From: a bacterium
GTDB lineage: Bacteria > JAMCPX01
Length of the DNA stretch: 64,000 nt
Direction of reading: 5' to 3'
Assembly: GCA_037439545.1 (NCBI GenBank)
Contig: JBBIVV010000003.1
Coordinates: 12,906-76,905 of the forward strand
In this document: positions 2,910 through 58,162 of the stretch, piece by piece
Numbering within the stretch: the stretch's first letter is position 1
Layout of the letters: every line of letters begins with the position of its first letter
Program-made: the position numbers and the translations under genes
The notes under the pieces: model-generated
What the model was told of the DNA's origin: nothing
Database searches by the model: none
What the model saw: only the letters and a program-made list of their open reading frames with translations

Positions 2910-2916
2910 CGAACGA

Positions 2917-3974: not shown

Positions 3975-4118
3975 CGTATTCCTCCAGTCAAAGTATAGAA
4001 CATAAATAGAGCAGAATTTTTAGAAAAGCAAACGATCGGATAAAACAGGACTGCGTCATAATGTATTTCTGAGGCTTTAGCCGAAGAATTTAAAAACTTC
4101 AAGAAGGGCACATACTAC

Positions 4119-5693: not shown

Positions 5694-5706
5694 GTAGGGT
5701 TACCGG

Positions 5707-18783: not shown

Positions 18784-18812
18784 AAAAGCTCCTTGTTTCC
18801 ATTTTTTCTGTA

Positions 18813-18882
18813 TTCCCCTCTTAATCTAAGAGGGGTAACACGGAAGAATGCCCCTCTTATGTAAGAGGGATAACGCAGAAGC
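18813..18882. repeat. two tandem copies of a ~35-nt hairpin unit between the ABC ATPase and permease genes
   Basis: Unit 1 is ttCCCCTCTTAatcTAAGAGGGGtaacacggaag (hairpin 18815-18835). Unit 2 is tgCCCCTCTTAtgTAAGAGGGataacgcagaag (hairpin 18851-18870). Confidence 0.7.
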
Positions 18883-18917
18883 TTATATGTAACTACGAAA
18901 GACTTTCTCATTTTAAG

Positions 18918-22123: not shown

Positions 22124-22181
22124 ACTATAAACTCTTTTGCGCAGGGTTGTTCCCTCTCCCGGTACGGTAAAGGATATTCCC

Positions 22182-23103: not shown

Positions 23104-23193
23104 TTCTTTCTCCTTATAGGATATAACGCTCTATCCTTGTTTTTTGTTCCGTAAACAATGACGGATGTCCCGGTTTTACGGGGAAAATATGAA

Positions 23194-38267: not shown

Positions 38268-39764
38268 TCAGCAGATCACCTCATATACTGTGACGGGATT
38301 TTCTTTCCCCTTGACCGCTATCTCTCCGACCAGTTTCGTGTTCACGGGCCTTTGGACGAAGCTATTTGTCTCTCTCGAGATCAATATCTGATTTACCTGT
38401 GCAATGGACTGCAGCCGTGATGCTACATTGACGATGTTGCCGATGACCGTGTATTCAAGCCTCCGGGACGACCCGACCATAATACCGAGGACCGGTCCTG
38501 TATCTATGCCTATCCTTAAGGAGACGTCGATTCCATCCTCATTGTTTTTTACCCATCGGATCAATGATTCGGCTGAATTTATGGCCCTATCGGGATCATC
38601 GGCATGCGAGATCGGTGTGCCGAATACAGCCATAAAGCCGTCACCGAGGAACTTGTTTATGGATCCTCCGTTCGAAAGAACGATAGTCGTCGCCTTTTCA
38701 AAGAACGCACGCAGGATACGCGCGATCTCCCGGGGATTGTTCTTCTCCGTCAGCGAGGTAAAGCCCACGATGTCTGCGAACAGTATGGTGCTTCTGTTTA
38801 CCTCCTGCACATTCCACAGGGATGAAGGATTGTTCTTTATCATATCGAGAAATCCGGACACAGCCTCTATCGGTACGAATCGTTTGATCTGCTCTACGAT
38901 GTTTTTTTCGTCCGTTATTTTTTGAATGAGCCGTTCGTGGGCTATGGTCAAGGCAAGCAGGTTTGCAATGATGGTAATGAAATTCAGATTTTCTTCGCTG
39001 AACTGCTGCCGGCCGATCTTACGATCAGCATAGAGTGCACCGTAGATTTGGTCCTTTTCCCATATAGGGGCACAGATGGCGGAATATATGCCCATATTCT
39101 GTATCGTGCGGTCCCCGGTAAATCTATTGTCAATGCCCGCATTTTTCACAAGGATGCCCGCCCTGTTTTTTATGGATTTGTTGAGTATTGATGAACTGAT
39201 ACCCGTTACGCCCGGTCCCCGGACATGGCTTGCAGATTTCATCAATAGCTCTCCGGTAGTCTCATTTATTACCAGTATTGCCCCGTAATCTGCTTTAAGG
39301 GCGTTCCCTATCGATTTTATGGTATGATCATAAAATTGTTCCTGGTCATGCGTGTAGATACCTTCCCGGGCGACAGAGAATATGATGTCCAGATACACAT
39401 TGTTTAACAGCGAGGGTGAAGAGGCTATACTGTTGAGCTCAGCGGACGGGACTTCCTTGACGGTTATAAGCTCCTCGTCTTTGAAGACCAATACCACATT
39501 GCCTGCTTTAATCTCATCCTGATCCTTTAATTTAATTTTTTCTGCAATCATCTCGCCGTTGAGAAGGGTGCCGTTTGAGCTTCCATTATCATAGACATAA
39601 TATCCGTCCGGTTCTTTTTTTATGACGAAATGATTTCTGGAAACACTCGAGTCGAACAGTACTATATCATTGGAGGGTAGTCTGCCGGCGCTTACCGCGC
39701 CTTTATCGATTACAAAAACCTCTTCGGACTGATTATTTTTTTGACTGTAAACCAGAGACGGCAT
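38268..39764 (-). CDS. FHA - GAF - class III adenylate/guanylate cyclase
   Basis: FHA domain (GRLPSNDIVLFDSSVSRNHFVIKK....YDNGSSNGTLLNG), a central GAF-like domain, and the cyclase catalytic domain (TILFADIVGFTSLTE...FLGDGFMAVFG). Confidence 0.85.
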   Translation of the reverse strand: MPSLVYSQKNNQSEEVFVIDKGAVSAGRLPSNDIVLFDSSVSRNHFVIKKEPDGYYVYDNGSSNGTLLNGEMIAEKIKLKDQDEIKAGNVVLVFKDEELITVKEVPSAELNSIASSPSLLNNVYLDIIFSVAREGIYTHDQEQFYDHTIKSIGNALKADYGAILVINETTGELLMKSASHVRGPGVTGISSSILNKSIKNRAGILVKNAGIDNRFTGDRTIQNMGIYSAICAPIWEKDQIYGALYADRKIGRQQFSEENLNFITIIANLLALTIAHERLIQKITDEKNIVEQIKRFVPIEAVSGFLDMIKNNPSSLWNVQEVNRSTILFADIVGFTSLTEKNNPREIARILRAFFEKATTIVLSNGGSINKFLGDGFMAVFGTPISHADDPDRAINSAESLIRWVKNNEDGIDVSLRIGIDTGPVLGIMVGSSRRLEYTVIGNIVNVASRLQSIAQVNQILISRETNSFVQRPVNTKLVGEIAVKGKENPVTVYEVIC

Positions 39765-39773
39765 GTACCGGCG

Positions 39774-41234
39774 CTACCATAAGAGTAACGTATATGCCAG
39801 AAAATTTACGGCAGAGAGGGCGATTGCTCCCCTCAGATATCCGCTGCCTTCAATCAATGGCTTACGCTTGAGGAAAACAAGTATTCCTATTGACAGAAGA
39901 AGGCTGAGGGCTGTCAATAAAATGCCGATCTGAAACATCGGAGATAAAAACCATTTCGGCAGTACCTTCAGGTTAAAGAAATAAAGAATATCGAGTATAA
40001 AAACCACCGGACCGCCTATGAGGCTTATGACCGGGAGCAGGACAAGTAAATGCATGGGTTTAATTGCAGGCTCGACGATCTTCATCGGCTTGCCGCATTT
40101 TTCGCATTGCTCCTTCGTATCCTGCTGGTAACCGCACCATGGGCATACGGAGGTCGAAGTCCGTCTTGTAACCCGAGCTTGAGTGAGTATGGCATTGTGC
40201 AGGTTGGCGCCGTTCATGTCCGTTTCGCGCAGATCAGCTCCGCTCAGGTTCGCACTGCTCAGGTCGCTGTAGGGAAGTACTGAATTGTTCATGATAGCAC
40301 CGGATAAGTTCGCTTCTTTTAGAGATGCTTTTGATGCCATCGCATGACTCAATATAACACCTTTCATATTTGCCATTGAAAAGTTTGTATGAACACACGA
40401 CGCATGAGACATACTGGAACGCTCGAGCATTGCACCGGTCATGACCGCATTGTCGAGTTTTGCATAGTCTAAAATAGCTCCCGAGAGCTGCGCATAATCA
40501 AGCTGTGAACCTTCGAGGTTGGCTCCTCTCAGGTTTGCATCCGTAAGATTGATATTACTCATCTTTGCAGAGGTGATGACCGCTTCGGACAGGTCGAGTC
40601 CCGACAGATTAATTCCTCTTAAATCGCTTGAAGGCATGAATACCTTTCTGAGCGATACACCTGTTAACAAGGCTTTCTGTATGTTCGACCCTCTCAATGT
40701 TGCACTGGAAAAATCAGCACCACGCATGTCTGCTTCTGATAGGTCTGACGATTCAAGGTTTGCATTTACAAAGCTTGCCCGGTATAGCAGTGCCTTGTTA
40801 AATTTTATGCCTGCTGCCCTTATGCTGTCGAATGTTGCCTCTTTCCCGTTTACCCCTGTCAGCGTTGCACCTGCCATCTGACAGGAAGTGAAGTCCGCCC
40901 GTTCAATAGTAGCAGATGACATGTTTGCTTCCTGAAGCACAGAACCGGAGAAATCGGCATTTCTCGCATCCGCCTTTGTCATCGTTGCACCCTGCAGGTT
41001 TGCACCCTTGAATGATGATTTTATCAGTTTTGCTTCTTTCATCAGACAGAAAGAAAGGTCCGCGTTATCGAATAGTGCTTCCGAGAGATCAGTGCCGGAT
41101 AGATCTGAATTTCTCATCCTTATGCCCGAAAGGTTTAGCCCCTTTAGATTCTCGCCCGTTAGTTTTACATTTGAAAGCTCAATCCCCTTGTCCTTATGAT
41201 CGGACATGTATTTAATCAGTTCGTCTCTGGTCAT
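39774..41234 (-). CDS. membrane-anchored pentapeptide-repeat protein with zinc-ribbon
   Basis: About 370 aa of A(D/N)LXX pentapeptide repeats (...ANLQGATMTKADARNADFSGSVLQEANMSSA...), then CPWCGYQQDTKEQCEKCG (CxxC-x10-CxxC) and three C-terminal TM helices. The ATG at 41234 is preferred over the TTG at 41270. Confidence 0.8.
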   Translation of the reverse strand: MTRDELIKYMSDHKDKGIELSNVKLTGENLKGLNLSGIRMRNSDLSGTDLSEALFDNADLSFCLMKEAKLIKSSFKGANLQGATMTKADARNADFSGSVLQEANMSSATIERADFTSCQMAGATLTGVNGKEATFDSIRAAGIKFNKALLYRASFVNANLESSDLSEADMRGADFSSATLRGSNIQKALLTGVSLRKVFMPSSDLRGINLSGLDLSEAVITSAKMSNINLTDANLRGANLEGSQLDYAQLSGAILDYAKLDNAVMTGAMLERSSMSHASCVHTNFSMANMKGVILSHAMASKASLKEANLSGAIMNNSVLPYSDLSSANLSGADLRETDMNGANLHNAILTQARVTRRTSTSVCPWCGYQQDTKEQCEKCGKPMKIVEPAIKPMHLLVLLPVISLIGGPVVFILDILYFFNLKVLPKWFLSPMFQIGILLTALSLLLSIGILVFLKRKPLIEGSGYLRGAIALSAVNFLAYTLLLW

Positions 41235-41355
41235 AAAAAGATTCTTATAACAATTATCGTAAATATGCAAGCGGGAATAGAGTCAGGAAGAAGTAACTCC
41301 TCAACTCCTTCTCCCTTGCTTTGACATTATAAAAAAAATGGGGTAAAAGAAAAGC

Positions 41356-42549
41356 ATGAAAATAATCGTGAGATTATTACCGTTAATTTTATTTATAGCA
41401 CTATCGATATCAACAGCAGATCCATCGTACGCACAGCAATATGTCAGTCAGGGGGCATGGGCAGTAGGCATAGTAAAAGGGCTCGGTTGGGAGAGCAAGG
41501 GCATACCGCAACAGCCATCTTTAATGGATTACATGGATCTCCTGTCAGGAAGGAATTTTATCAATGTAAACCTCAAAAATTATGCAACAAGGCTCGGCAC
41601 TTTTCCCGATACCCTTACCTATAATGTAAATGTAGAACACTGCGGAAGATATCGTCTTATTGTGTATGTGTACGGCAATCCGGTATTATTTACCATGGAT
41701 AATGAACCTACTGTTTCATCTCATTTCTCAAACGGCTGGAACTATGAAGAACCCGCCACCTTTATACTGAAAAGGGGTGTTCACAGATTGAGTATTACCA
41801 TACCGAAAGGCAGCTCAATATTTGCCCTTTATCTGAGTTCTATGGCAGAAAACGCGATTCAACCGAAAGGCGGCTGGGTTGCGGCAAAGCCGCTAGATTA
41901 TGGTGCAGAAGCAAGTACACTGACCATGGCAATGGATGTTGCCGGCAAGCTGCCTGTCCAATCTGAAATACCTCCAGCAGTCAGGGCTGGTGCAAATGCA
42001 CGTCAATTTACCTTTCAAATACCCTCTGATCCTGTCCTGAACTTTAACACAACATTCCAGGGCCCATCGAGAGGGTATGTCATGGTGGATAACTCTATTG
42101 TTATACCTTATGAGGTTCGCGGCACGGACGCACCGCCCCTCAACATGAAAGCAATAAACCTTGGTCAGGGCACGCATACTGCATATTTGAAAATTCTCTC
42201 AGGCCAAGCGCCTTCGTCATTCGTTATATACCAGCATAATGATTCCCCCGAAGCATGTAGTGCGCTGATGAGATCCATGGGATTTAATATGGGGCTTGCT
42301 TATTTGCCGGTACCGTACGATATCGCACGGGCATCACTTGGGGCCTTCATCGTAATAGTGGCAAAAACCGTGCCATACAATATTGCACGGGTGTCGCTGG
42401 AAGAATTGATTGCAAGGATGGCAAAAAACAAAATGCCCAATGAACTCGATCTTTCCGGTCTGCCTGTCAAGCAGACAGAATTACCCTCACAGCGCGTTAT
42501 CAGGACATATAAAGAACCCATAAGCCCCATGGTTCCGTTTGAGGATTAA
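41356..42549 (+). CDS. secreted protein 'A': two beta-sandwich-like modules fused to a PFED-tail module (family not recognised)
   Basis: Signal peptide MKIIVRLLPLILFIALSISTADPSYA. It is a paralogue of 42779..43747 over ~290 aa. The C-terminal ~85 aa are paralogous to the separate gene 43763..44071. The protein ends ...YKEPISPMVPFED. Confidence 0.7.
   Translation: MKIIVRLLPLILFIALSISTADPSYAQQYVSQGAWAVGIVKGLGWESKGIPQQPSLMDYMDLLSGRNFINVNLKNYATRLGTFPDTLTYNVNVEHCGRYRLIVYVYGNPVLFTMDNEPTVSSHFSNGWNYEEPATFILKRGVHRLSITIPKGSSIFALYLSSMAENAIQPKGGWVAAKPLDYGAEASTLTMAMDVAGKLPVQSEIPPAVRAGANARQFTFQIPSDPVLNFNTTFQGPSRGYVMVDNSIVIPYEVRGTDAPPLNMKAINLGQGTHTAYLKILSGQAPSSFVIYQHNDSPEACSALMRSMGFNMGLAYLPVPYDIARASLGAFIVIVAKTVPYNIARVSLEELIARMAKNKMPNELDLSGLPVKQTELPSQRVIRTYKEPISPMVPFED
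41429..42294 (+). repeat. copy 1 of an ~870-nt direct gene duplication
   Basis: It aligns by eye with 42860..43741 with long identical runs, e.g. gggagagcaagggcataccgcaacag and gaggaattttatcaatgta. Substitutions are scattered. Confidence 0.85.
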
Positions 42550-42691
42550 GCTGGTCTTAATTATACGATCTATGAATAGTTTTTCGTGCCGCTTGTGTAA
42601 TATTCAACCGTAATAATTAAATTTTCAACATCTATTCCACACTACTGTGTAAATTGGTATTAAATATTAATAGGTTACGAATGGTTTATTC

Positions 42692-42707
42692 TGGCACAGA
42701 TGTTGCA
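42692..42707 (+). promoter_or_regulatory. sigma54 (-24/-12) promoter core upstream of secreted protein 'B'
   Basis: TGGCAC-agatg-TTGCA is an exact match to TGGCAC-N5-TTGC(A/T). It lies in an AT-rich 229-bp intergenic region ~72 nt upstream of ATG 42779. A 9-bp inverted repeat GAACATGAA (42722-42730) / TTCATGTTC (42750-42758) lies in the predicted leader. Confidence 0.5.
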
Positions 42708-42778
42708 AATCAAAATATGAAGAACATGAACATAATTATGCATGGTGTATTCATGTTCGGATTGACATTACAGGGAAA

Positions 42779-43747
42779 ATGGTGTTAAAAGATTTTATGA
42801 GAAAAATAGTTAAGCCGGGTTTATATTTACTGGTATTGTTATCCGTAGTTAAGCCATCTTATGCACAGCAGTATGTGAGTCAGGGAGCATGGGCCGTTGC
42901 CCTTGTAAAAGGGCTTGGCTGGGAGAGCAAGGGCATACCGCAACAGTCATCTTTAATGGATTATTTCGATCTCCTTGCAGGGAGGAATTTTATCAATGTA
43001 GACATCAAAAATTATGCAACAAGGCTCGGTACTTTGCCCGATACACTTACGTATAATGTAAATGTCACTCACAGCGGCAGGTATAATCTTATCGTGTATG
43101 TGTATGGTAATCCCATGATGTTTACCCTGGATAATGAACCTACTGCATCGTCTAATTTCTCAAATGGCTGGAACTATGAGGATCTCGGCACCTTTATGCT
43201 GAAAAGAGGTATTCACAAGTTGAGTATCACCATACCAAAAGGCAGCTCAATAGTATCGCTTTATCTGAGTTCTATGGCAGAGGATGCTATTCAACCGAAA
43301 GACGGCTGGGTTGCGAGCAAACCCCTTGATTATGGTGCTGAGGCAAGGACCATGACCATGGTAATGGATGATGCCGGTAAATTGGATGCAGGTAAATTGC
43401 CTGTTAAATCTCAAATACCTTCTGCAATAAGGGCTGGTGCAAATATAAGAGAATTTGTATTTCAATTGTCATCAGACCCTGTCCTGAACTTCAACATAAC
43501 ATTCCAGGGTCCATCAAAAGGATATGTCATGGTTGATAACTCCATTGTCATTCCTTATGAGGTTAGTGGCCGGGGAATGGAACCTCTCAATATGAAGGCA
43601 ATAAGTCTTGCACAGGGCGCACATACCGCATTTTTGAAAGTTTTATCAGGGCAGCTGCCCTCGTCATTCGTTATATACCAGCATGATGATTCTTCCGAAG
43701 CATGCATTACGCTTATGAAAACAATGGGCTTTGATATGGGATTTTAA
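42779..43747 (+). CDS. secreted protein 'B': paralogue of A lacking the tail module
   Basis: Signal peptide ...LYLLVLLSVVKPSYA. It is collinear with A (QQYVSQGAWAV..VKGLGWESKGIPQQ...). It stops at ...MGFDMGF, where A continues into the tail. AGGGA RBS. Confidence 0.7.
   Translation: MVLKDFMRKIVKPGLYLLVLLSVVKPSYAQQYVSQGAWAVALVKGLGWESKGIPQQSSLMDYFDLLAGRNFINVDIKNYATRLGTLPDTLTYNVNVTHSGRYNLIVYVYGNPMMFTLDNEPTASSNFSNGWNYEDLGTFMLKRGIHKLSITIPKGSSIVSLYLSSMAEDAIQPKDGWVASKPLDYGAEARTMTMVMDDAGKLDAGKLPVKSQIPSAIRAGANIREFVFQLSSDPVLNFNITFQGPSKGYVMVDNSIVIPYEVSGRGMEPLNMKAISLAQGAHTAFLKVLSGQLPSSFVIYQHDDSSEACITLMKTMGFDMGF
42860..43741 (+). repeat. copy 2 of the ~870-nt direct gene duplication
   Basis: See 41429..42294. 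This copy carries an extra 15-nt tandem duplication at 43370-43399. Confidence 0.85.
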
Positions 43748-43762
43748 TCGAAGGGGAAATTT

Positions 43763-44071
43763 ATGCTTATAAAAAAAAGGATCATTTTATTATTCTTTCT
43801 TGTAATTCCTATAAGTGTTCTCGCACAATCCGCAGGAAATGCTTTTGCAGCAGACTATAATACCTCTGTTCGTGATGTGGTGAATAGACCTGTCCCCTAC
43901 GATACTGCACGGGCATCACTTGCCAGATTGATGACCATGGTGGCAAAAAATAAACCGGAGGGAGGCATCTCTCTGGCGGGTATGGCTGCCAAAAAGACGG
44001 AATTACCGTCACAGACTGCTCTCAGGACATACAAAGAATCCATAAGCCCCATGCGTCCGTTCGAGGATTAA
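43763..44071 (+). CDS. small secreted protein 'C': free-standing PFED-tail module
   Basis: It has its own signal peptide, MLIKKRIILLFFLVIPISVLAQSAGNAFA. RPVPYDTARASLARLMTMVAKNK...ELPSQTALRTYKESISPMRPFED aligns with the C-terminus of A. An AAGGGGA RBS lies in the 15-nt gap after the B stop. Confidence 0.65.
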   Translation: MLIKKRIILLFFLVIPISVLAQSAGNAFAADYNTSVRDVVNRPVPYDTARASLARLMTMVAKNKPEGGISLAGMAAKKTELPSQTALRTYKESISPMRPFED

Positions 44072-44073
44072 GG

Positions 44074-44628
44074 ATGACAGCACTCATAAGACGGACAATT
44101 ATAATAGGGTGGTTCTTTTTATTATTTTGCACCTCAGCATCAGCAGGTGAGATCATTTATGCTTCCAGAAGTTTTAATATTGCAAGCGGTGCAAGTATTA
44201 TCGTTGCTCCATTCCAAAATCTAACAAAGGCACAGGGTGCAGGTGATAAATTTTCGAACTATATTGCACAGGCACTTGCAGAATCTGGATCCATGCGCAT
44301 TGTGAGGGAAGATCAGTTCATTTCCCGCTTGTCGTACAATAGGTTGAAACCAGGCCTGCCTGTCGATAGATCCATTGCTCAATTAGTGGGCGGACAGCTC
44401 GGCATTCGTTATGTCGTGTTTGGCAGTGTCGTGGAATATAACTACGAACTCTCCAATGATGGAAGCAGGACAATACCCATTGCAGGTATCGATGTTAGAA
44501 TCCTTGATGTCGATTCGGGCAGAATTATTTTTGCAGGCTCTTTCATAAAAGAAGGCTCATCTGGCACTCAACTGGATAGTGTTGCAATGGATGCAGCCGA
44601 TGCATTTCAAAAGAGGATCATGCAGTGA
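44074..44628 (+). CDS. CsgG/LpoB/TolB-N-fold periplasmic (lipo)protein
   Basis: Signal peptide, then IIVAPFQNLTKAQGAGDKFSNYIAQALAESGSMRIVREDQFISRL...LGIRYVVFGSV. This is the vAvlPF.N.t....g..l...l...L...g.f.vv.R pattern shared by CsgG, LpoB and FlgO-type proteins. Confidence 0.55.
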   Translation: MTALIRRTIIIGWFFLLFCTSASAGEIIYASRSFNIASGASIIVAPFQNLTKAQGAGDKFSNYIAQALAESGSMRIVREDQFISRLSYNRLKPGLPVDRSIAQLVGGQLGIRYVVFGSVVEYNYELSNDGSRTIPIAGIDVRILDVDSGRIIFAGSFIKEGSSGTQLDSVAMDAADAFQKRIMQ

Positions 44629-45650
44629 TGCTGATAAAAAGATTCGTAATCATTGCTCTCATTGTTTCGTCAGGGTGCGCACCTTCCATCACCTCGAATT
44701 TTCTTATTCCGCCGTCGAGTATTAATACTATAAGCTGTATTGCAGTGCTTCCCTTAAAGAACGATACTCAGAATCCCAATGCCGGCAATGTAATATCAGA
44801 CATACTTTCAGTGGCGCTCATGAAACAGGGCGGGTTCAACGTTATGGACAGGATGGAGGTTGAGAGGGTTTTAAGGGAAAGGGATATCTATACACCGGAT
44901 GGGATAGCGCCGGACGATGCGGCGGGAATGGGCATTATATTGGGTGTGCAGGCTGTATTTACCGGAAAGGTAACACGGTATGTGTATAAACCGTCAAGCC
45001 TTGCAACAGAAGGGGCAATACCGCTTGTAGACATCGCACTTTCTCTTATTGATACAACGACCGGACAGACTCTGTGGACCGGTGAAGGCACATTCTCGTC
45101 ATCCGGTTTGCTTGCTGCAGGTACGACACCAATCACCGATGCTGTGCAGGATGGCGTGACGCAGCTTCTTGATTCATTGTATGCCGGAATAGGCCAGAAA
45201 CCCGAGCCGCCATCCGGTATGTGCTGGTATGATCCGAACACGATATTCTCAAGAGTAATTATTGCAAATCAGCCGGCGCCCCGGCCTGTTCAAAGACCCG
45301 CGGTTTCTTATGCTCCAAGGCCTGTGCAGGAACAGCAGGTCGCATCTGTAACTGTGCCAGAACAAAGGCCTCAGGCGCAGTTGCCGCAGGCAAAGGTATC
45401 GGTAATGAATGCAAGCGGCAGCCCGAAGGCATCGATAGTGGTGGGTGTGACGCTTATAAAAAGTAAAATCAATGTGGTAAATGTAAGTATGGAAAAGCGT
45501 GTAAAACCGAGAAGTACGATATATTACAAACCGGCTTACCATGAACAGGCGCTTGCCATAGCAAGATTATTTAAAAAAACACCCTCTCTCGTACAGTCGC
45601 AGACATTTAAATGGGACATAACATTCGTTATCGGCAGGGATTTAAAATAG
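44628..45650 (+). CDS. CsgG/LpoB-fold lipoprotein fused to a C-terminal LytR_C domain
   Basis: Lipobox IVSSGC. CIAVLPLKNDTQNPNAGNVISDILSVALMKQGGFNVMDRMEVERVLRE...LGVQAVFTGKV. A P/Q-rich linker follows. The C-terminus KVSVMNASGSPKASIVVGVTLIKSKINVVNV...STIYYKPAYHEQALAIARLF...FVIGRDL is LytR_C-like. The start overlaps the upstream stop (TGATG). Confidence 0.6.
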   Translation: MLIKRFVIIALIVSSGCAPSITSNFLIPPSSINTISCIAVLPLKNDTQNPNAGNVISDILSVALMKQGGFNVMDRMEVERVLRERDIYTPDGIAPDDAAGMGIILGVQAVFTGKVTRYVYKPSSLATEGAIPLVDIALSLIDTTTGQTLWTGEGTFSSSGLLAAGTTPITDAVQDGVTQLLDSLYAGIGQKPEPPSGMCWYDPNTIFSRVIIANQPAPRPVQRPAVSYAPRPVQEQQVASVTVPEQRPQAQLPQAKVSVMNASGSPKASIVVGVTLIKSKINVVNVSMEKRVKPRSTIYYKPAYHEQALAIARLFKKTPSLVQSQTFKWDITFVIGRDLK

Positions 45651-45667
45651 GGACCGGAGGAAATTTT

Positions 45668-46810
45668 ATGAAGCAAAACAAGTTATTCCTTTGTACGCTT
45701 TTTATATTGATTGTCATTATAATGCCCCGCAGTGTGTATGCCGCAGGCGATCACGAGAGATTATTGAAAGCGTATCTTTCATTGAGCGATGCTTATGATA
45801 CGAATGTTTTAGGAGCCGGAGGGCAGGCTAAAGACAAGTCGGATAACATTATCTATATTCAGCCGTCCCTCGATTTCCTTCTGCCTTTCAGGTTTGGAGC
45901 CGACCTTAATGTTAATTATACTTTTACCTACCTCAACTACAGCAAATATACGCAATACAATACCTACTACAACGATCTCAATGCATCACTCAACTTCTAT
46001 CCGGTAGATAATCTCATATTTGGCATAAGCGATCAATATGTGGCAGTCCCTATATCTCCGCAGCTGCCGACGTTTGCAGCAACAAATATAACGCAGGTAA
46101 ATTACCTTAATCCTTATATCGCCTATAAATTCCCGATTATGACGAGGTTCTCCATAGATGTCAGATACGATTACATAAAAGTTGATTTCCCCGGCTCGCT
46201 TGGCATTGCATACAGCATCAATGAGCCGCAGATAGATGCGGCTTGGCTTCCGAACCGTTACTTAAAAATTAAACCGGGTTTCAAGTATATATCCCAGACA
46301 TTCACGGCATCATCGTTAGGGACAATTAATCAGTCTATACCCTATATAGAAGTTGCTATATCGGATGGATCGAAACTGACTTTTACAGGTAATTACAGCT
46401 ATGTTGCATTTAGCTTTACTAATAATACACAATCCGGCAGTATATATCTCGCGAAGCTTACATATAAGCCGGATGACAGACTTGATACCGACTTGTACGT
46501 GGATGGATCAAAGGCTTTCGATATATTCGGCAGGTTATACACGAACTTTGAAACCGGATTGGATGCGACCTATAAGATGACGGATCAAGTAAACGGTACG
46601 ATCGGAGCTAAATACCTGAAGCTTAAATATGCAGGGGAGAATTACTATGAAGATGCTTATGGATTTAATATTGGAATCAATTACAAGTTTATAAGGTGGG
46701 CTGAGTTATTTGCGACATACTACTATTTCAATGAAAAACCGGAATCATCAAGTGTTATTGGCTATCAGGACTCAAGGATACTCTTCGGTATCCGTGCGGG
46801 CCTGCTGTAA
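45668..46810 (+). CDS. outer-membrane beta-barrel protein (Tyr-rich, EPS-locus type)
   Basis: Trimmed to ATG 45668 with a GGAGG RBS. Signal peptide MKQNKLFLCTLFILIVIIMPRSVYA. Alternating hydrophobic/aromatic beta-strand patterns run throughout (NVNYTFTYLNY, SIDVRYDYIKV, FNIGINYKF). Confidence 0.6.
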   Translation: MKQNKLFLCTLFILIVIIMPRSVYAAGDHERLLKAYLSLSDAYDTNVLGAGGQAKDKSDNIIYIQPSLDFLLPFRFGADLNVNYTFTYLNYSKYTQYNTYYNDLNASLNFYPVDNLIFGISDQYVAVPISPQLPTFAATNITQVNYLNPYIAYKFPIMTRFSIDVRYDYIKVDFPGSLGIAYSINEPQIDAAWLPNRYLKIKPGFKYISQTFTASSLGTINQSIPYIEVAISDGSKLTFTGNYSYVAFSFTNNTQSGSIYLAKLTYKPDDRLDTDLYVDGSKAFDIFGRLYTNFETGLDATYKMTDQVNGTIGAKYLKLKYAGENYYEDAYGFNIGINYKFIRWAELFATYYYFNEKPESSSVIGYQDSRILFGIRAGLL

Positions 46811-47660
46811 GCTGATACTTTTAGTATTTATTATATCTCTCCTGTTTGTCCCGAACATTCATGCGCAGGATGAATATACCATAGGTCCTTCCGATGTACT
46901 GCATATAGAAGTTTTCGGAGAGAATGATCTCACAGGCGATTTCACGGTTTCTCAGGACGGGACCATAAAAAATATATTACTTGGAGATGTCACGGTCCAG
47001 GGGCTTACTACAGCACAGGCAGAAGCATTGCTTACCGAAGAGCTCGGCAGTGACTATCTTGTCGATCCGAAGGTTTCAGTCTCCATTAAAGAATACAAGA
47101 GCCATAAAGTGTATGTTCTCGGTGAGATCGATAAACCGGGAACCTACGCACTGACGACAAAAAGCAGCCTGCTTGATATACTCCTGAAAGCAGGAGGACC
47201 TACTTCGAATGCAGGAGACAATGTTTCTATCCTGCGCAGTGCAGACGGAACGCTCACGCATATACGGGTCGACATCACAAAACTTTTTATTGAAGGAGAC
47301 CTGTCTCAGAACATACCGATTAAAGACGGGGACATAATCTATGTGGCGCGGCAGGAAAAGGGTAACATCACGAGCAGGTTCTTTGAGAAAAGACTGAACG
47401 TTTTTTATGTTGTCGGCGAGGTTAAATCTCCGGGCTCCTATGAGCTGCAAGAGGGCTACACGGTGTTGAATGCAATACTTCAGGCGGGCGGTTTTACGGA
47501 CTATGCAAAGAAGAACGGAGTCATGCTCGTCCGGTACGAGGACGGTAAGAAAAAAGTGTATCACATTAAAATGGGCGATGTGATGAACAAAGGCGATCTG
47601 TCCGATGACATGCATGTGCAGGCATCGGATCTTATAATCGTTCCGGAGAGTCTGTTTTAA
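46794..47660 (+). CDS. polysaccharide export protein (Wza/Poly_export + SLBB)
   Basis: YTIGPSDVLHIEVFGENDLTGDFTVSQDGTI (Poly_export motif), KVYVLGEIDKPGTY and FYVVGEVKSPGSY (SLBB). I propose the GTG at 46794, which gives (M)RACCKLILLVFIISLLFVPNIHA as a signal peptide. The ORF-track start 46710 overlaps the upstream gene by 101 nt. Confidence 0.8.
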   Translation: MRACCKLILLVFIISLLFVPNIHAQDEYTIGPSDVLHIEVFGENDLTGDFTVSQDGTIKNILLGDVTVQGLTTAQAEALLTEELGSDYLVDPKVSVSIKEYKSHKVYVLGEIDKPGTYALTTKSSLLDILLKAGGPTSNAGDNVSILRSADGTLTHIRVDITKLFIEGDLSQNIPIKDGDIIYVARQEKGNITSRFFEKRLNVFYVVGEVKSPGSYELQEGYTVLNAILQAGGFTDYAKKNGVMLVRYEDGKKKVYHIKMGDVMNKGDLSDDMHVQASDLIIVPESLF

Positions 47661-47661
47661 A

Positions 47662-49512
47662 ATGTCTTCACATATAACGGAAACAAAAAGCGACATAAAG
47701 TATTATATCGATATACTCTATCAACGCCGGCTGCTTATTGCTGTCGTGTTTGTCGTTACCATGGTCATGATAATAATTGCCTATGCAGTAACGCCTCCGA
47801 TGTATACGGGTAAGACAAAGCTGCTGATAGAGCCGGAGCATTACACAAGCCTCAATACGAACAATACGGATCAAAACCAGCAATCCTTTTATTTTCAAAC
47901 ACAGCTCGAACTTATGAGAAGCGAGCCGGTGATACATCTTGCAGCACAGAGCCTCGGCTTCCAGAAAGGAACAAAAGAGTTTTATGAAACGACCGGAAAA
48001 CTGAGAAAAGACCTCCGTGTTGACCGTATTCAGGATTCAAGGATATTCACCATCTCAATAAAATCTCATAGTCCCGCATTTGCCGCCCGGGCTGCAAATG
48101 CCATAGCCGACAGCTACATAAGATTTTTAGACGAGCAGAGGAAGAAGCGTATAAGCGATATTACACTGTGGCTGCAGGGAGAGCTGACATCACTGAAAAA
48201 TAAGGTCGAAAGCTCGGAGATGAAACTCATAAAATATGTCGAAGATAAGGAGACCAGCAACAGCAGTGATACTTTTATGTTTCTCGGAGGACCTGACAAC
48301 AATACAGGTGCAAAAGCCCTGTCCGAGCTCGAAACGAAGTATATTACGCTCCAGATAGAACTTACGAATATGCTTCAGAAATACAAAGATAAATATCCTT
48401 TAGTCGTTCAGTTACGAAATGATCTGAAAGCACTCAATATAAGAATAAACATGATGAAGCAGGCAATGCTTGAAGCAAATAAAAGCCGGATACAGTATGT
48501 CATGCTGAGCAGGGATGCGGAATTGAGCAAGGATCTCTACAGCATGCTCACCAAGGAATTGAAAGAGGTGGACGTTTTCGGGGAGATCGGTTACCCCACA
48601 GCAACAATCCTAGAACATGCCGGTATACCGACCGGCAGATCGGACCAGGGATTTATGTTCTGGCTGTTGTTCGGCTTAATAGCGTCGACACTGACCGGCG
48701 TCGTGTCTGCAATGATTGCCGATCAATTGGACAATAGTATCAAAGGAGAAACGGACATAGAGCGGTTTGTGAAGTATCCTATTATTGGTGCACTGCCGTT
48801 TCTTGAAGAGCTCAAAAACAGCGAACCTCATAAGCTTTTAGGCTTGCTGAACAGCACGACATCCCAGATTTATGCCGAGGCATTGAGACTTATCAGGACA
48901 AACCTTAAGTATTCTTTTGTCACGAAATCAGGCAGGGTATTGTTGGTCACCTCGACCGGAGAAAATGAAGGGAAAACAACCATGTCGACGAGTCTTGCGT
49001 ATATACTGTCCATTACAGGGTCAAAGGTCCTGCTCCTCGATGCCGATGTCAAGAAACCGACGATACATAAGCTGTTCGACACCGAACGTATACCCGGGTA
49101 TACAGAGCTGCTGATAGAAGAAAAAAATTCTATTATGGATGTAATCAAACAGAGCAGTTATAGTTCGCTTTATTATCTTACCTCCGGCAGACAACCGCCC
49201 AACTTTGCTGAGCTGCTCGACTCTCCGCGATCGAAGGAATTCATAGAGATGCTGAGGAGCAATTTCGATTATGTTATAATAGATTCACCTCCGGTCGGTA
49301 TCGTTTCTGATGCCGCTATACTGTCATCACAGGTCGATGGTATACTCTTTGTCATTAAGGCCAACGGATATCCGAGGGAGCACATTATGAGGAGCATTAA
49401 AGCCTTGTCCGGGATCAATGCGAAGATAGCAGGTATCGTCTTGACGCATCTTGATAAGGGTAAGGGGTATTACAGAGATTATTACTACAGCAAAGGTTAT
49501 TATCATGAATGA
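47662..49512 (+). CDS. polysaccharide co-polymerase / tyrosine autokinase (Wzc/GumC type)
   Basis: N-terminal Wzz chain-length domain with coiled coil, a second TM, and a P-loop kinase (VTSTGENEGKTT, LLDADVKKP, VIIDSPPVG). The C-terminal Tyr cluster is GKGYYRDYYYSKGYYHE. Confidence 0.88.
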   Translation: MSSHITETKSDIKYYIDILYQRRLLIAVVFVVTMVMIIIAYAVTPPMYTGKTKLLIEPEHYTSLNTNNTDQNQQSFYFQTQLELMRSEPVIHLAAQSLGFQKGTKEFYETTGKLRKDLRVDRIQDSRIFTISIKSHSPAFAARAANAIADSYIRFLDEQRKKRISDITLWLQGELTSLKNKVESSEMKLIKYVEDKETSNSSDTFMFLGGPDNNTGAKALSELETKYITLQIELTNMLQKYKDKYPLVVQLRNDLKALNIRINMMKQAMLEANKSRIQYVMLSRDAELSKDLYSMLTKELKEVDVFGEIGYPTATILEHAGIPTGRSDQGFMFWLLFGLIASTLTGVVSAMIADQLDNSIKGETDIERFVKYPIIGALPFLEELKNSEPHKLLGLLNSTTSQIYAEALRLIRTNLKYSFVTKSGRVLLVTSTGENEGKTTMSTSLAYILSITGSKVLLLDADVKKPTIHKLFDTERIPGYTELLIEEKNSIMDVIKQSSYSSLYYLTSGRQPPNFAELLDSPRSKEFIEMLRSNFDYVIIDSPPVGIVSDAAILSSQVDGILFVIKANGYPREHIMRSIKALSGINAKIAGIVLTHLDKGKGYYRDYYYSKGYYHE

Positions 49513-49570
49513 CGAACCCAAAAAATGCGTATGCAAAACGGAAAAGTGTGCGTAAAGCGGTTCTTCAGGC

Positions 49571-50761
49571 TTACTCAAATATGATTCTTATCTGCTTCCT
49601 TCTGCCTGCCTGTAGTATATAACTGCCCTTTGCATCTATTTTAGAGAATATGTTGTTCACGGCTGCGTTATTTATGGTAACGCCGCCTCCCTGGATAAGA
49701 CGTTTCGCTTCTGATTTACTCGGGACAAGAGCGGCATCTACAAGGAGCTGATAGACAAAAGCAGGCCCGGTGGTCGAGCTGAGCTTAAGCTCTTCAAGTT
49801 TATCGGGTACTTCTTTTTTTGAAAACACTTTTTCGAACACTTCTTGTGCATGATGTGCGTCGGCTTCTGAGTAAAACTTTTTGCAGATCATGAAAGCAAG
49901 CCGCTTCTTTATCTCCATGGGATTTGTCTCCCTTTGTCGTGTGTGTGCTTTTAATGTATTTATATCGTCCCGGGACATCTCCGTCAGGAGTTCATAGTAA
50001 GTCCACATAAGTTCATCACTGATACTCATGATCTTTCCGAATATCATATCAACCGGTTCGTCAATGCCTATATAATTTCCATAGGACTTGCTCATCTTTT
50101 TGATACCGTCGAGTCCGGGCAGCAGGGGCATGGTAAGGACCACCTGGGCAGGCTGGTTGTAAGCCTCTTGGAGGACCCTCCCGACAAGTAGGTTAAACTT
50201 CTGGTCCGAGCCTCCGATCTCAACGTCCGCGTGAAGCATAACAGAGTCATAACCCTGCATCAGGGGGTAGAGCAGCTCATGGATGCCGATAGGCTTTTTT
50301 TCTGAATACCGTTTCGTAAAATCGTCTCTTTCAAGCAGTCTTGCAACGGTATATTTCGATGCAATTCTTATCAATTCCATCATATCGAGCTTTAAAAACC
50401 ATTCGGAATTATAATGTACTTCTGTCTTTGACGGATCAAGGATCTTAAAGGCCTGTTTCATGTATGTCTGTGCATTTTCATGGACCTGTTCCTGAGAGAG
50501 CTGGGGCCTTGTCACGGACACGCCCGTAGGATCACCTATCATTGCCGTAAAATCACCGATAAGAAAAATAACGGTGTGTCCCGCAATCTGGAAATGTCTT
50601 AATTTCTCCATCAATACCGTGTGCCCGAGATGGATATCCGCTGAAGTCGGATCAAACCCTGCTTTTACTCTGAGAGGTTTTTTTGATGCAATCCGCTTCT
50701 TTAATTCTTCTTTTTGAATTATCTCGACAGCGCCTTTTTCTATAAGGGATAATGGTTCCAT
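49571..50761 (-). CDS. tyrS: tyrosine--tRNA ligase
   Basis: HIGH motif DIHLGH, KMSKS motif present, C-terminal S4-like domain. The length is 396 aa. Confidence 0.93.
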
Positions 50762-55177: not shown

Positions 55178-58162
55178 TCAAGGCTGGAATATGACCCTTG
55201 ATTCTGCGTTTTGCAGTATGTCCTTCGGATAGAACCATTGCGGATGGACCTTGTTATTTACCCACAGGTTGACCTGGTCAGCGTAATGTTTCGGCGGGTT
55301 CGCAAGATCAGGTCCCATACCAGACTCTCCGCCCGGCAGGACGTTATATCCCACTATCGCACCTGGTTTCATCTCGACCGAGAACCGTATTGCAGGTCCG
55401 CCACCGTAGGTATAGTCCGTGTGAAATGGCATTGCACCATTGCCCATCTCAAACCCGAATGTTCCCGGGTCCACCGAGAACATGCTCCCGGGTCTTGGAT
55501 AGCCCTGATTGTTATTGGCCGGATCAGCAAGATCGAATTCGTGATCTCCGGTAAGACTGATCAGATCGGAAAAGGTCAGGGTGTGCAGTTTGCCCCATTG
55601 CCATTGTGTCATATCGGTTGTTCCAAAGCTCGTCGGCGTTCCTTTACCGGTGGAAGCCATTGAGAGATCATCGATGCCCTGTGCAAGACTTTGTATCATG
55701 ACCTGGTCAAGGGTCCTTGGACTGAAGGTATAGCCGGATGAAGTCGGAACAAGGGCATCAAGGAGCGTGCTCTGCTGGGTCGAGAGTGAGTATGTCGCGC
55801 ACTGTGTCGGGTGCTCCAGCATGGTGACCAGGGTATTGATGATAATCATGTCGTTAATTGATCGGTCCTGACCTAAGGCCTGCATCTTGTCATAAAAGAT
55901 AGTGTAAAACAGTCTTTGGACAAAGCCCTCGAATATGGATGTTGCAATGCTGTTATTGACGTCATCGGTCGTTGCCGACGGAGACATGCCCGTAGGCGTG
56001 TCATAAGGATGAGTACTCGTTGTCCATGCATTCAAATAGGTCATGGCGGTCGCGGTCGGTGAATTTGCGGGGATGGTGCCTTTCAGATCTGTATATGCTT
56101 TTTGCAGGAATGGCAGTATGTCCAATGCGTAGGTATCTGTATGATCAGCTTGAATAACGTTCTGGACATACGCGAGATCAATAGTCCCTTTGCCTGCTGC
56201 TTCGATGTCCTTGTCTATCTGGTGCGCTCTGTATCCGGGGTCATAAAATCCACCAAGGTAATAGGGGTTGTTCATCGGTTCGTTATTATACGTAACACCC
56301 ACAGGGTCTTCGTTTGCTGTTGCTATATAGCCCTGTGCAGGGTTTTCAACAAATGGGACCGCTGATGCAGGCACCCAGCCTGTCCAGTATACATTGGGAT
56401 CATAACCAGGCAGCATTAGATAAGGCGGATAGGTAAAATCGCTGAAAGGCAGTCCACTCGGCAGTGCGTTTTGCGTATAAAGCTGTGTGTCTGGCCCTCT
56501 TGTCGGAATCGCACTCTGGTCCGTTAAATATATATTTCCCTTTATATCGGCATAAACAAAGTTCTGTGAGCCGACTTTGAAATAACTCTGAGCTGTTATA
56601 AATTCGGCAAGGTTCTGTGCCTGGTCTATTCCGTAAAATGCCTGCAGTTCGTCTGACGGTACCATGCCTGTCCATGTGAATGCTTCCAATGCTGTCGATC
56701 CCCCAGGCGTGTAACTGCCAGGGTATACGGGCATGGTTCCATGTCCGGGTATGGTTACATAATATGCGTTAATTGTCGTTGGCGATAATCCCTTGCCCAA
56801 CACACCGCCATAATTAAAAGTCATAGGGACAGGTTGTATGGGTATGGCTGTTCCATTATAGTTTGCGGTATCAGGATTACCCGTAGTTACGGTAAATTGA
56901 TAAACGTCTATAACATCCGATGGAAATACGGTGTCACCCCATGCAATAGAATCATTATGTCCTATGACGACACCAGGTGCACCCGGAAATACGACACCTA
57001 TGGTATTAATGTTGCCATTACCGACAGCCGTTGTATTGACATGTATCTCATACCAAATAGGCGGATTGTAAAGCGGGAGGTGCGTATCGTTTGCAAGGAT
57101 TGCATATCCGTCTTTGGTAAGGGAAGGACCGATTACCCAGTTGTTGCTGCCTACCTGGCCCTTCTCTCGGGGCTTATACAAGAAACCGAAAGGCCCATTC
57201 CGTAAGGAATTGTAAAAGTCCTCTGCGCCCTGCAGGGCTGTCTGATTTATCTGCATGGGATGTACAGAGGCATTGTTTTTAGTCCCGGGAACGGACATAA
57301 GGTTTAGGTTTTTGTAGGATAATACCGAGAATGTGGTAGAGGTCGCATATGAAAACGGGTTCGGCAATGGAACAGCAGGAGCCTTTGCCGCAGGCTCTGA
57401 GCGTGCGAAATCATACGTAAGCCCTGAAAAATGTTTCAAACCAGGATCAGAAGAAGTTGAGGTGAAAATCGTAGACCCTGCATTAAAGTAATGCGTTGCG
57501 TGTACCTTGGTCCCCTCGTCCTCCATCGTAAGACTGTAGGATTCAAATTTACCGAAAGCAATGAGGTCTTCGGGTGTGAACGGCTTTATATCGGAAATGG
57601 TGATACCCATGAGAGGACTCGAATATTCGGCAGGCAGCACCTTTGCATTCGGATTTGCCTGTATCTGCTGTGCAAGCTGACTCAGATAAAAATTGATGCC
57701 ATTGCAGAATGCTTGAAGTATGCCCTGCAGGTCAGGGGGGGTTTGTGCATATACAATTTGAGCAATCGAATAAAAACCCATCATCCTTGAATGTATGTCC
57801 TCGTTTAATGCCTGGTTGCCGAAGTATTCTGTCAAGGTGCCGTCGGCAATATGTCTGAACATGTCCATTTCAAAGAGCCTGTCCGACGCCTCTGCATAAC
57901 CCTGCGCAAACGCGACATCGGTAATTGTCTTACCGTATATATGTGGTATGCCGTAGGTGTCCCTGATTATTTCGACCGGGGATTGAATGGATCCTTTTGA
58001 TGTCTGAATAGTCTGGTTTACCGCCAAACCTGTAAAAGGATCATTCGGACCTATTGATACACCCGAACTGGAACTGCTGGAGCATGTGGTGAATTGCAGC
58101 ACTGATAAGACTAACACTGTTAGTCCCGCGATAGAGAGCCATGAGCGTGTTTTTAACGACAT
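55178..58162 (-). CDS. penicillin/AHL-acylase-family Ntn hydrolase, lipoprotein-type, long form (paralogue 1)
   Basis: Signal peptide plus Cys (LSVLQFTTC). Alpha-subunit motifs IIRDTYGIPHIYG and AQGYAEASDRLFEMD. The autoproteolytic site is G/SNNW with Ser339 (codon 57146-57148). The length is 994 aa. Confidence 0.85.
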   Translation of the reverse strand: MSLKTRSWLSIAGLTVLVLSVLQFTTCSSSSSSGVSIGPNDPFTGLAVNQTIQTSKGSIQSPVEIIRDTYGIPHIYGKTITDVAFAQGYAEASDRLFEMDMFRHIADGTLTEYFGNQALNEDIHSRMMGFYSIAQIVYAQTPPDLQGILQAFCNGINFYLSQLAQQIQANPNAKVLPAEYSSPLMGITISDIKPFTPEDLIAFGKFESYSLTMEDEGTKVHATHYFNAGSTIFTSTSSDPGLKHFSGLTYDFARSEPAAKAPAVPLPNPFSYATSTTFSVLSYKNLNLMSVPGTKNNASVHPMQINQTALQGAEDFYNSLRNGPFGFLYKPREKGQVGSNNWVIGPSLTKDGYAILANDTHLPLYNPPIWYEIHVNTTAVGNGNINTIGVVFPGAPGVVIGHNDSIAWGDTVFPSDVIDVYQFTVTTGNPDTANYNGTAIPIQPVPMTFNYGGVLGKGLSPTTINAYYVTIPGHGTMPVYPGSYTPGGSTALEAFTWTGMVPSDELQAFYGIDQAQNLAEFITAQSYFKVGSQNFVYADIKGNIYLTDQSAIPTRGPDTQLYTQNALPSGLPFSDFTYPPYLMLPGYDPNVYWTGWVPASAVPFVENPAQGYIATANEDPVGVTYNNEPMNNPYYLGGFYDPGYRAHQIDKDIEAAGKGTIDLAYVQNVIQADHTDTYALDILPFLQKAYTDLKGTIPANSPTATAMTYLNAWTTSTHPYDTPTGMSPSATTDDVNNSIATSIFEGFVQRLFYTIFYDKMQALGQDRSINDMIIINTLVTMLEHPTQCATYSLSTQQSTLLDALVPTSSGYTFSPRTLDQVMIQSLAQGIDDLSMASTGKGTPTSFGTTDMTQWQWGKLHTLTFSDLISLTGDHEFDLADPANNNQGYPRPGSMFSVDPGTFGFEMGNGAMPFHTDYTYGGGPAIRFSVEMKPGAIVGYNVLPGGESGMGPDLANPPKHYADQVNLWVNNKVHPQWFYPKDILQNAESRVIFQP

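Follow-up and report, generated by a model that had tools for sequence, protein, structure and literature searches.

How does a polysaccharide cross the outer membrane when its OPX protein (named for outer-membrane polysaccharide export) has no pore of its own? The question is raised by the locus at positions 41356-49512 on the + strand of a 64-kb stretch of bacterial DNA (the whole of which is called the window here), in which ORF listing gives eight open reading frames (ORFs), all on the + strand. The last three encode a candidate outer-membrane β-barrel, a Wza-type OPX protein and a Wzc-type tyrosine autokinase of the polysaccharide co-polymerase (PCP) class. They are preceded by genes for three secreted proteins (A, B and C) and for two PelC-like proteins (P1 and P2, the first and second lipoproteins of a preliminary description of this DNA). 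In the reading favoured here, to which a probability of roughly 0.55 is given, A, P1 and P2 would supply a PelC-like collar, anchored in the outer membrane and to the cell wall and bearing sugar-binding arms, that serves the Wzc/OPX exporter.

The locus is a genuine, tightly coupled unit whose proximal half is undescribed. A gap of 229 nt separates A from B; from B onward the spacings are 15, 2, -1 and 17 nt, an overlap and 1 nt, and these recomputed values agree with those of the preliminary description. That description had placed the same-strand ORFs correctly and had counted nine genes, where the ORF count is eight. The locus is a self-contained cassette of six functions (A, P1, P2, barrel, OPX and Wzc); in this genome, duplication of its first gene has been followed by a split of the second copy.

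The collar is suggested by the two proteins in the middle of the cassette. P2 (44625-45650, + strand; 341 amino acids) is an outer-membrane lipoprotein with a PelC-like domain, a P/Q-rich linker and a LytR_C domain. Its lipobox is SSGC, the Cys in [SAT]GC and a second Cys are invariant in orthologues and a CWYDPN motif is conserved. In Pfam it matches CsgG (46.5 bits), GNA1162-like (30.8 bits), LpoB (30.2 bits) and LytR_C (23.8 bits against a cut-off of 22.2), the CsgG match spanning only profile positions 10-106 of 210. An AlphaFold2 model of P2, with a predicted local distance difference test score (pLDDT) of 73.5, has one α/β domain at residues 21-188 (about 165 amino acids) without transmembrane hairpins, a disordered P/Q-rich stretch at 202-249 and the LytR_C domain at 256-335 (about 255-340). 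The proposal that the second lipoprotein is joined through a P/Q-rich linker to LytR_C is thus borne out by profile and model alike. The PelC-like domain is acidic (isoelectric point (pI) 4.3) and the LytR_C domain basic (pI 10.4). In Foldseek comparisons the target-normalised template modelling (TM) score of P2 was 0.67-0.81 to PelC (5t0z, 5t10, 5t11 and 9h80; E down to 8e-11), 0.71 to GNA1162, 0.62-0.64 to LpoB and 0.37-0.46 to CsgG (4uv2), with 17-22% identity in the structural alignments to PelC. A word-indexed homologue search with P2 returned 17 matches, from the same lineage only. Two P2 proteins of 447 amino acids (P0037 and P0038) carry two LytR_C domains.

P1 (44074-44628, + strand; 184 amino acids) is a PelC-like periplasmic protein with marginal Pfam scores (LpoB, 23.3 bits against a cut-off of 22.3; CsgG, 19.8 against 20.8). 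Its best sequence match in the PDB by phmmer is PelC (9h80_C, E 4.8e-6), followed by 5t11, 5t10 and 5t0z; that of P2 is also PelC (5t11, E 0.002). Scores to the LpoB equivalog TIGR02722 of NCBIfam were 29.6 bits for P2 and 18.5 bits for P1, against a cut-off of 110.55. P1 is probably soluble and not lipidated, because its Cys is absent from most orthologues, which have signal peptidase I (SPI) sites of the form AxA↓(D/G)E (↓, cleavage). Thus, of the two CsgG/LpoB-type lipoproteins of the preliminary description, P2 stands, with its lipobox and its CsgG, LpoB and LytR_C matches, but P1 does not, its profile scores being marginal and its Cys not conserved. Both proteins are closest to PelC and not to the CsgG channel.

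The gene order around P1 and P2 is conserved. The order A-P1-P2-barrel-OPX-Wzc is identical in all of the distinct complete related contigs (11/11), and shorter contigs are consistent with it, without exception. Homologues of A are always syntenic with the genes for the PelC-like, barrel, OPX and Wzc proteins in related contigs, a co-occurrence for which the preliminary description had asked. Close relatives of A number 35 among 5.8 billion clustered proteins, all of them hypothetical; searches with a hidden Markov model of A among 1.84 billion representatives found 103 relatives at E ≤ 1e-3 (7 at E ≤ 1e-30), and A is carried by about ten species-level metagenome-assembled genomes (MAGs) among 185,579 genomes. 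The flanks of the cassette vary. In the window they hold genes for a pentapeptide-repeat protein and for tyrS; contig L028 has pentapeptide and GAF proteins there, L001 and L018 have VTT/RNase III and LptD, L026 has a glycoside hydrolase family 2 (GH2) protein and a GAF protein, and L020 has other genes. A block encoding a VTT-domain protein, RNase III, PEBP, a phosphoribosyltransferase, MurJ and ArsA-like ATPases adjoins the cassette in L001 and L018. Since the window's copy of the VTT/RNase III/MurJ block lies at 1468-7775, 36-40 kb from the cassette, a rearrangement appears to have moved the cassette as a unit.

Distant relatives of A, with 22-31% identity, retain its overall architecture and tail. 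Two contigs (L021 and L022, with A relatives at 24-31%) carry A-like and P1-like genes and the start of a gene for a P2-like lipoprotein. In L023 the order is a tetratricopeptide repeat (TPR) protein, A-like, P1-like, P2-like with OmpA and LytR_C-like domains, and a barrel homologue (E 3e-8); in L024 A-like, P1-like and OmpA-bearing P2-like proteins are followed by a Wzc-type kinase (TIGR01007, 165.8 bits). OmpA thus replaces or joins LytR_C in distant P2 relatives, and since OmpA is a bona fide peptidoglycan-binding domain, the swap supports a tether to the cell wall. Because the operon coupling and order are unbroken and a link to a barrel or to Wzc recurs in distant lineages, a collar that serves the exporter is favoured. 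Relatives P0153-P0156 lie on contigs of 12-47 kb. A metagenome scan with a single distant protein (P0057) gave no match, and looking up contigs by the exact sequences of the window's A and P2 was likewise without result.

A second type of locus, found in seven contigs (L002, L013-L017 and L030), encodes a protein of about 524 amino acids that joins the A domains to a P1-like domain by way of an SGCG-containing linker; next comes a gene for a P2-like lipoprotein. Five MAGs hold both locus types. The tail of A is absent from these type-2 loci, and since the A domain is there covalently linked to the P1-like domain, P1 would be the likeliest docking site of A. The conserved internal SGCG of the type-2 protein resembles a relic lipobox.

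The proposed arms of the collar are members of one family. Protein A (41356-42549, + strand; 397 amino acids) is secreted, with the SPI signal SYA↓QQ, and has two jelly-roll β-sandwiches resembling carbohydrate-binding modules (CBMs) and a disordered tail ending ELPSQRVIRTYKEPISPMVPFED. B (42779-43747, + strand; 322 amino acids) is a paralogue of residues 23-314 of A (A and B share 78% identity over 297 amino acids) that stops after ...MGFDMGF, without the third helix and the tail. C (43763-44071, + strand; 102 amino acids) has its own signal peptide, corresponds to the last helix and tail of A (55% identity to the last 64 residues of A, 334-397) and ends ISPMRPFED. DNA alignment indicates that, after ...MGFDMGF, the second copy gained a stop, an AAGGGG resembling a ribosome-binding site and a new signal peptide, giving C. 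Related genomes have a single A gene encoding about 377 amino acids. The A/B/C duplication was seen in no other genome examined, and a C orthologue (P0078, 102 amino acids) is present in another sample. Read from the sequence, A is equivalent to B plus C, through a lineage-specific tandem duplication whose second copy was cleanly split; B and C together should rebuild an A-like protein, to which C would supply the third helix and tail. The claim that A, B and C belong to no recognised family holds in that profile searches placed A in no Pfam or NCBIfam family, but the three are one family and not three separate novelties.

The AlphaFold2 model of A, built from a 36-sequence alignment, has a pLDDT of 81.7 and a predicted TM score of 0.73, with pLDDT > 90 across most of both domains. 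The strands of the β-sandwiches (85-161 and 201-294) each follow a short bridge-plus-helix element; a third helix of this type lies at 321-338, and residues 339-397 are disordered. The Foldseek matches of A are to CBM35-bearing glucanotransferases (best, E 2e-7) and galactose-binding-like domains of GH2 and GH35 enzymes, and further to Cry toxin domains and collagen-binding domains. The tail contains a conserved peptide, ELPSQ(R/K)xLRTYxE(P/S)ISPMxPFE, usually at the very C-terminus; it is disordered in the model, yet is the most conserved stretch outside the folds. In distant relatives its core is LPSE...YxEP(I/V)SPxxP, the PFE(D) ending being specific to the lineage of the window. The tail module also stands alone (C and P0078) and on a different N-terminal domain: P0108 (286 amino acids) has a C-type helix-plus-tail module behind an unrelated β-rich N-terminal domain that is FecR-like by eye. 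In P0020 (456 amino acids) the A domains are joined directly to a LytR_C domain. Mimicry by the tail of the first strand of the PelC domain, which a MAFFT alignment had brought up (ISPMxPFE and IAVAPFEN), was rejected, since the spacing of the conserved Tyr differs and distant relatives have no PFE ending; it is kept as a lead only.

In the distal half, the OPX protein (46710-47660, + strand; 316 amino acids for the whole ORF, the true start being probably near 46788) matches Poly_export (81.8 bits), SLBB (90.3 bits) and SLBB_2 (94.4 bits), with nothing past residue 311 of 316. It scores 188.1 bits to TIGR03027 (cut-off 180), so the Wza-type export protein of the preliminary description is upheld, with Poly_export and two SLBB domains. 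Its best PDB match is a polysaccharide export protein of 186 amino acids (9n9a, E 8e-23), and its alignment to Wza covers only chain residues 59-287 (D1-D3); neither Pfam nor the PDB alignment gives it the outer-membrane helix Wza_C. A lipobox is likewise missing: there is no conservation of the Cys ahead of the hydrophobic core, and cleavage is at a site of SPI type, IHA↓Q. The C-terminus IIVPESLF is invariant in orthologues.

The barrel candidate (45668-46810, + strand; 380 amino acids) has an SPI signal, and its gene always adjoins the OPX gene in related contigs. A PDB sequence search with it gave no match. The Tyr-rich barrel of 381 amino acids described earlier is a real ORF with 10.3% Tyr, but is one residue shorter and stays below threshold on barrel profiles. 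The Wzc-type protein (47662-49512, + strand; 616 amino acids) is a bacterial tyrosine kinase (BY-kinase) of the PCP-2a class. It scores 161.7 bits to TIGR01007 (cut-off 108.05) and 49.9 bits to AAA_31, with a GNVR match and a weak Wzz match; two transmembrane-like segments are present (hydrophobic windows start near residues 18 and 331), and its tail, GYYRDYYYSKGYYHE, has 7 Tyr among the last 17 residues. The Wzc-type autokinase and tail noted at the outset are therefore confirmed. The candidate barrel, the OPX protein and Wzc match the published Class-3 OPX/β-barrel/PCP translocon, and the distal half of the locus is in this way already explained.

Synthesis genes are lacking beside this exporter. 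Within 10 kb of the locus in the window there is neither a glycosyltransferase nor a Wzx/Wzy flippase or polymerase, nor a sugar-nucleotide enzyme or Wzb, and the flanks of five other contexts hold no glycosyltransferase or Wzx/Wzy gene. Among the ORFs scanned in the whole 64 kb, the sole such matches are MurJ and a Wzy_C plus TPR protein, about 28-37 kb away. That the flanks hold no synthesis gene or Wzb, as reported for this one locus, is true of the cassette in all genomes examined. The Wzy_C plus TPR membrane protein, which is O-antigen ligase/polymerase-like (782 amino acids; 11473-13821, - strand), is the product of the one polymerase-like gene of the 64 kb. Genes for TPR proteins are found next to the distant loci in L023 and L024 as well.

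Gene content, folds and conserved gene order are observed, and from them a mechanism can be proposed in which ring formation, wall binding, tail docking and glycan binding are inferred. The barrel, the helix-less, non-lipidated OPX protein and Wzc would form a translocon of the Class-3 OPX type, exporting a polysaccharide whose synthesis genes presumably lie elsewhere in the genome. Its lipid would anchor P2 in the outer membrane, and the acidic PelC-like domain of P2, probably together with P1, may form a ring on the periplasmic side of the outer membrane, under the barrel, by analogy with PelC beneath PelB. The P/Q-rich linker and basic LytR_C domain of P2 (OmpA in distant relatives) would tie this ring to the cell wall. 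By its C-terminal peptide, of core YxEPISPxxP and here ending PFED, A may be attached to the ring, with P1 as the most likely site, and so be placed to bind or guide the glycan. The B and C of this genome may rebuild an A-like protein in trans, with C bringing the last helix and the docking tail. PelC is a lipid-anchored 12-mer ring mounted on the PelB barrel (PMC12141448), and this known case of lipoproteins forming a ring on a barrel used for export speaks for the collar. An OPX protein that is not lipidated would plausibly benefit from the outer-membrane anchor of a lipidated collar. Of the two readings offered in the preliminary description, the one in which Wza and Wzc handle a polymer made elsewhere, with A, B and C as accessories, is favoured by the barrel gene in L023 and the Wzc gene in L024 beside the triad of A, P1 and P2.

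Several observations weigh against a collar that serves the exporter. The seven type-2 contigs have no export genes near the triad and unrelated flanks, so the triad can stand apart, and only two distant loci (L023 and L024) are long enough to show the link to export. Synthesis genes lie beside the cassette in no genome examined. The profile scores of the barrel are below cut-off (BBP2_2, 22.2 bits against 23.7; TIGR03016, 33.7 against 90.85), as are those of A and B to CBM_35 (18.4 and 19.8 bits against 28, over about 30 residues), and the fold likeness of A holds per domain only, with a whole-model TM score of about 0.2. Furthermore, approximately 30% of Class-3 OPX proteins are of SPI type and non-lipidated without a known collar (PMC9603273).

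The explanation that survives best beside the favoured one is that A, P1 and P2 are an autonomous module between outer membrane and wall (a tether, an LpoB-like sensor or regulator, or a glycan-binding scaffold) that merely neighbours the exporter. It would account for the seven type-2 contigs, where the A-P1 fusion and the P2-like gene are all that is found amid unrelated flanks, and for the five genomes that hold both types; P1 and P2 are above the Pfam cut-off for LpoB, and LytR_C and OmpA domains point to the cell wall. However, the genes overlap or are 1-17 nt apart all the way through to Wzc, and their adjacency, which no type-1 contig breaks, is seen again in two distant lineages, there with different partners. 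The LpoB part of the explanation is countered by the NCBIfam equivalog score (29.6 bits against 110.55) and by a topology opposite to that of LpoB, the globular domain here adjoining the lipid anchor. An autonomous module is therefore rather improbable, if the most serious competitor.

Less probable by a clear step, and already the second reading of the preliminary description, is a channel made of P2, with or without P1 and the barrel, which would move A, B and C to the surface as adhesins or polymer anchors, as in curli CsgG or HfaB. The 46.5-bit CsgG match of P2 could be read in this way, and one orthologue has been named 'CsgG/HfaB family protein' by NCBI; the signal peptides and CBM-like domains of A, B and C are what a surface lectin might have, and the conserved tail could be a targeting signal. 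But the CsgG match stops halfway through the profile, the P2 domain is PelC-sized and modelled without hairpins, and its TM score to CsgG is far below that to PelC. No CsgE-, CsgF- or HfaA/D-like genes were found. A is compact and well folded, and too large for a pore model that passes unfolded chains, and that type-2 loci join it covalently to a P1-like domain is in keeping with a subunit and not with cargo. A curli-like role is thus unlikely. Least probable of all is that the cassette is the export arm of an XrtA PEP-CTERM/exosortase system with A, B and C as sorted substrates, since, although the OPX protein passes TIGR03027 ('XrtA/PEP-CTERM system exopolysaccharide export protein') and the barrel and Wzc partially match TIGR03016, TIGR03018 and TIGR03007, these barrel and Wzc matches fall far short of the cut-offs of the families, the C-termini of A and C are a soluble ...PFED in place of a PEP motif, transmembrane helix and basic tail, and Pfam scans of window ORFs of at least 120 amino acids gave no match suggesting an exosortase, the Pfam exosortase model itself not being among those checked.

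If the collar reading holds, some lineages appear to have equipped the OPX/porin/PCP trio with a ring of PelC type, a tether to the cell wall and a lectin-like subunit. To our knowledge, only the myxobacterial trio has been dissected so far. The collar would link PelC/PelB, which belongs to synthase-dependent export, with OPX/PCP of the Wzx/Wzy type, and these have so far been treated separately. The natural gene fusion and the natural gene split predict protein contacts, and the short conserved peptide is a candidate docking tag. A bolder and distinctly tentative proposal is that the triad represents an unrecognised class of periplasmic collar, a PelC-like, lipid-anchored ring bolted to the wall with exchangeable arms, carbohydrate-binding or other, recruited by YxEPISPxxP, which together with a helix-less, non-lipidated OPX protein and a barrel would make a fourth architecture for polysaccharide export across the outer membrane, merging synthase-dependent (PelC) and Wzx/Wzy-type (OPX/PCP) elements. 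Were this so, type-2 loci would show the collar working alone or in trans.

The transcription of the cassette may begin before A. Upstream of A is a promoter-like element read from the sequence (41321-41349, + strand; TTGACA-17 nt-TAAAAG) that ends 6 nt before the ATG of A; its -10 is weak and it is absent from the list of a consensus scan. A comparable element was found before B (42763-42791, + strand; TTGACA-17 nt-TTAAAA) by comparison with the region upstream of A. From these weak consensus matches, the tandem duplication seems to have taken the promoter along, and the duplicated element would imply that B starts at the ATG at 42797. CTTGACA recurs 5' of most A orthologues checked and of type-2 loci, and is absent in L006 and L011. 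This -35-like box is present 5' of the A orthologues in L001, L003, L005, L007-L009 and L020. Given its spacing, transcription would begin at the start codon or right beside it in the window, L001 and L003, yielding a near-leaderless mRNA; in L005 and L007-L009 the box lies about 80 nt upstream. A promoter and terminator scan of the locus did no better than on shuffled sequence, with no convincing terminator inside. An Rfam search of 41000-50000 at E up to 1 gave no match and no riboswitch, and a tRNA search of the window found none.

The GC content of the locus is 43.7%, compared with 46.4% for the rest of the window, which places it in the lowest 4.5% of equal-sized windows; the dip is concentrated in B, C, P1 and the barrel. 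The AT-richness that had been seen by eye is thus real but small. Horizontal acquisition was considered and rejected, given so small a dip and the vertical conservation of the cassette throughout the lineage.

The divergent upstream neighbour of the cassette encodes a pentapeptide-repeat protein of about 490 amino acids with a C-terminal membrane region (39774-41270, - strand). This neighbour recurs in L028 (6151-7611, - strand) and is absent in L001, L018 and L026; in L020 its position is taken by a 486-amino-acid gene without a Pfam match. Two genes upstream of the cassette lies the gene for an FHA-GAF-adenylate/guanylate cyclase (38268-39764, - strand), and 12 kb downstream that for a protein bearing two cNMP-binding domains (61502-62671, + strand); both may have a role in cyclic-nucleotide signalling. 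GAF proteins follow the cassette in L026 and L028. The GH2-family glycoside hydrolase divergently encoded upstream in L026 (7060-9696, - strand) is the sole carbohydrate-active enzyme beside any copy.

Elsewhere in the window, two adjacent paralogous genes of the penicillin-amidase family (55178-58162 and 58388-61312, both - strand) encode proteins of 994 and 974 amino acids. A MacB-type ABC efflux set (17566-23784, - strand) comprises an FtsX/MacB permease, an ABC ATPase, an HlyD adaptor and an OEP outer-membrane factor, and is followed by genes for a heavy-metal-resistance protein, a zf-HC2 anti-sigma factor and an extracytoplasmic function (ECF) sigma factor. A LysM plus FlgT_C protein is encoded at 134-1531 (- strand), with a similar gene in L020 (18636-19793) 2 kb downstream of the cassette; FlgT is of the same fold class as PelC and P2.

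Comparison with known systems places each half of the cassette. The Class-3 translocons of Myxococcus xanthus, WzaB-WzpB-WzcB and EpsY-EpsX-EpsV, each consist of an OPX protein, an 18-stranded barrel and a PCP (PMC9601211, PMC9603273). As in these, the OPX protein here has Poly_export and SLBB domains without an outer-membrane-spanning helix, and its gene adjoins those for a candidate barrel, which has an SPI signal, and for a PCP/kinase of Wzc type. Oligomerisation of WzaB depends on the lipid anchor of this protein, and its docking on the porin WzpB on a C-terminal Phe-Phe (PMC12819527); the OPX C-terminus is likewise a conserved aromatic one here (...SLF). Lipidation occurs in about half of Class-3 OPX proteins. 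Unlike the published translocon, the OPX protein has two SLBB domains and no lipobox, the barrel is sub-threshold on profiles and the conserved genes A, P1 and P2 precede the translocon genes. As no synthesis gene lies within five genes, the cassette would not pass the filter of PMC9601211. PMC9603273, searched for these terms, mentions neither PelC nor CsgG nor LpoB, and literature searches found no description of PelC- or CsgG-like proteins, or of LytR_C, combined with polysaccharide export as here.

With LpoB, the activator of PBP1b, P1 and P2 share a Pfam score above gathering and P2 shares the fold; in contrast, the equivalog score is far too low, the domain order is reversed relative to the lipid anchor and the context is polysaccharide export, not that of a stand-alone gene. 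P2 is also of the fold class of FlgT (3w1e) and MotY of Vibrio, the LPHT ring (8z5n), GNA1162 (4hrv) and PqiC/DUF330 (2iqi). FlgT/MotY-type scaffolds likewise pair a TolB_N-like, ring-forming periplasmic domain with an OmpA-like wall-binding domain, but belong to different machines, the likeness being at fold level only.

The Caulobacter holdfast system also pairs an OPX/PCP exporter with CsgG-family anchoring proteins. P2 resembles CsgG and HfaB in its α/β core, its Pfam CsgG match and its lipoprotein nature. It differs from CsgG in matching only the N-terminal half of the profile and in having neither of the two transmembrane hairpins of the 36-strand pore, and no csgE/csgF, csgA/csgB or Hfa partner genes were found in the locus by Pfam or NCBIfam.

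The closest likeness of the proximal half is to PelC. Of the solved structures it is the one nearest to P1 and P2 in sequence, and for P2 it is nearest in predicted fold too, an α/β domain of about 150 residues; P2 is, like PelC, a lipoprotein of the outer membrane, its domain is acidic (pI 4.3), and a gene for a candidate β-barrel is directly next. The Pel system itself was not seen, as neither pelA, pelB, pelD, pelE, pelF nor pelG, nor any Pel name, appeared in Pfam scans of the window ORFs tested (at least 120 amino acids) and the locus flanks, and the partners here, an OPX protein and Wzc, are foreign to it. Unlike PelC, there are two paralogues, one of them non-lipidated, P2 has an added linker and LytR_C (or OmpA) domain, and similarity is low (17-22% identity). 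Set against these systems, the proximal triad is new, with A having no curated family, the distal trio is of a known kind, and the cassette as a whole is confined to uncultured sediment bacteria.

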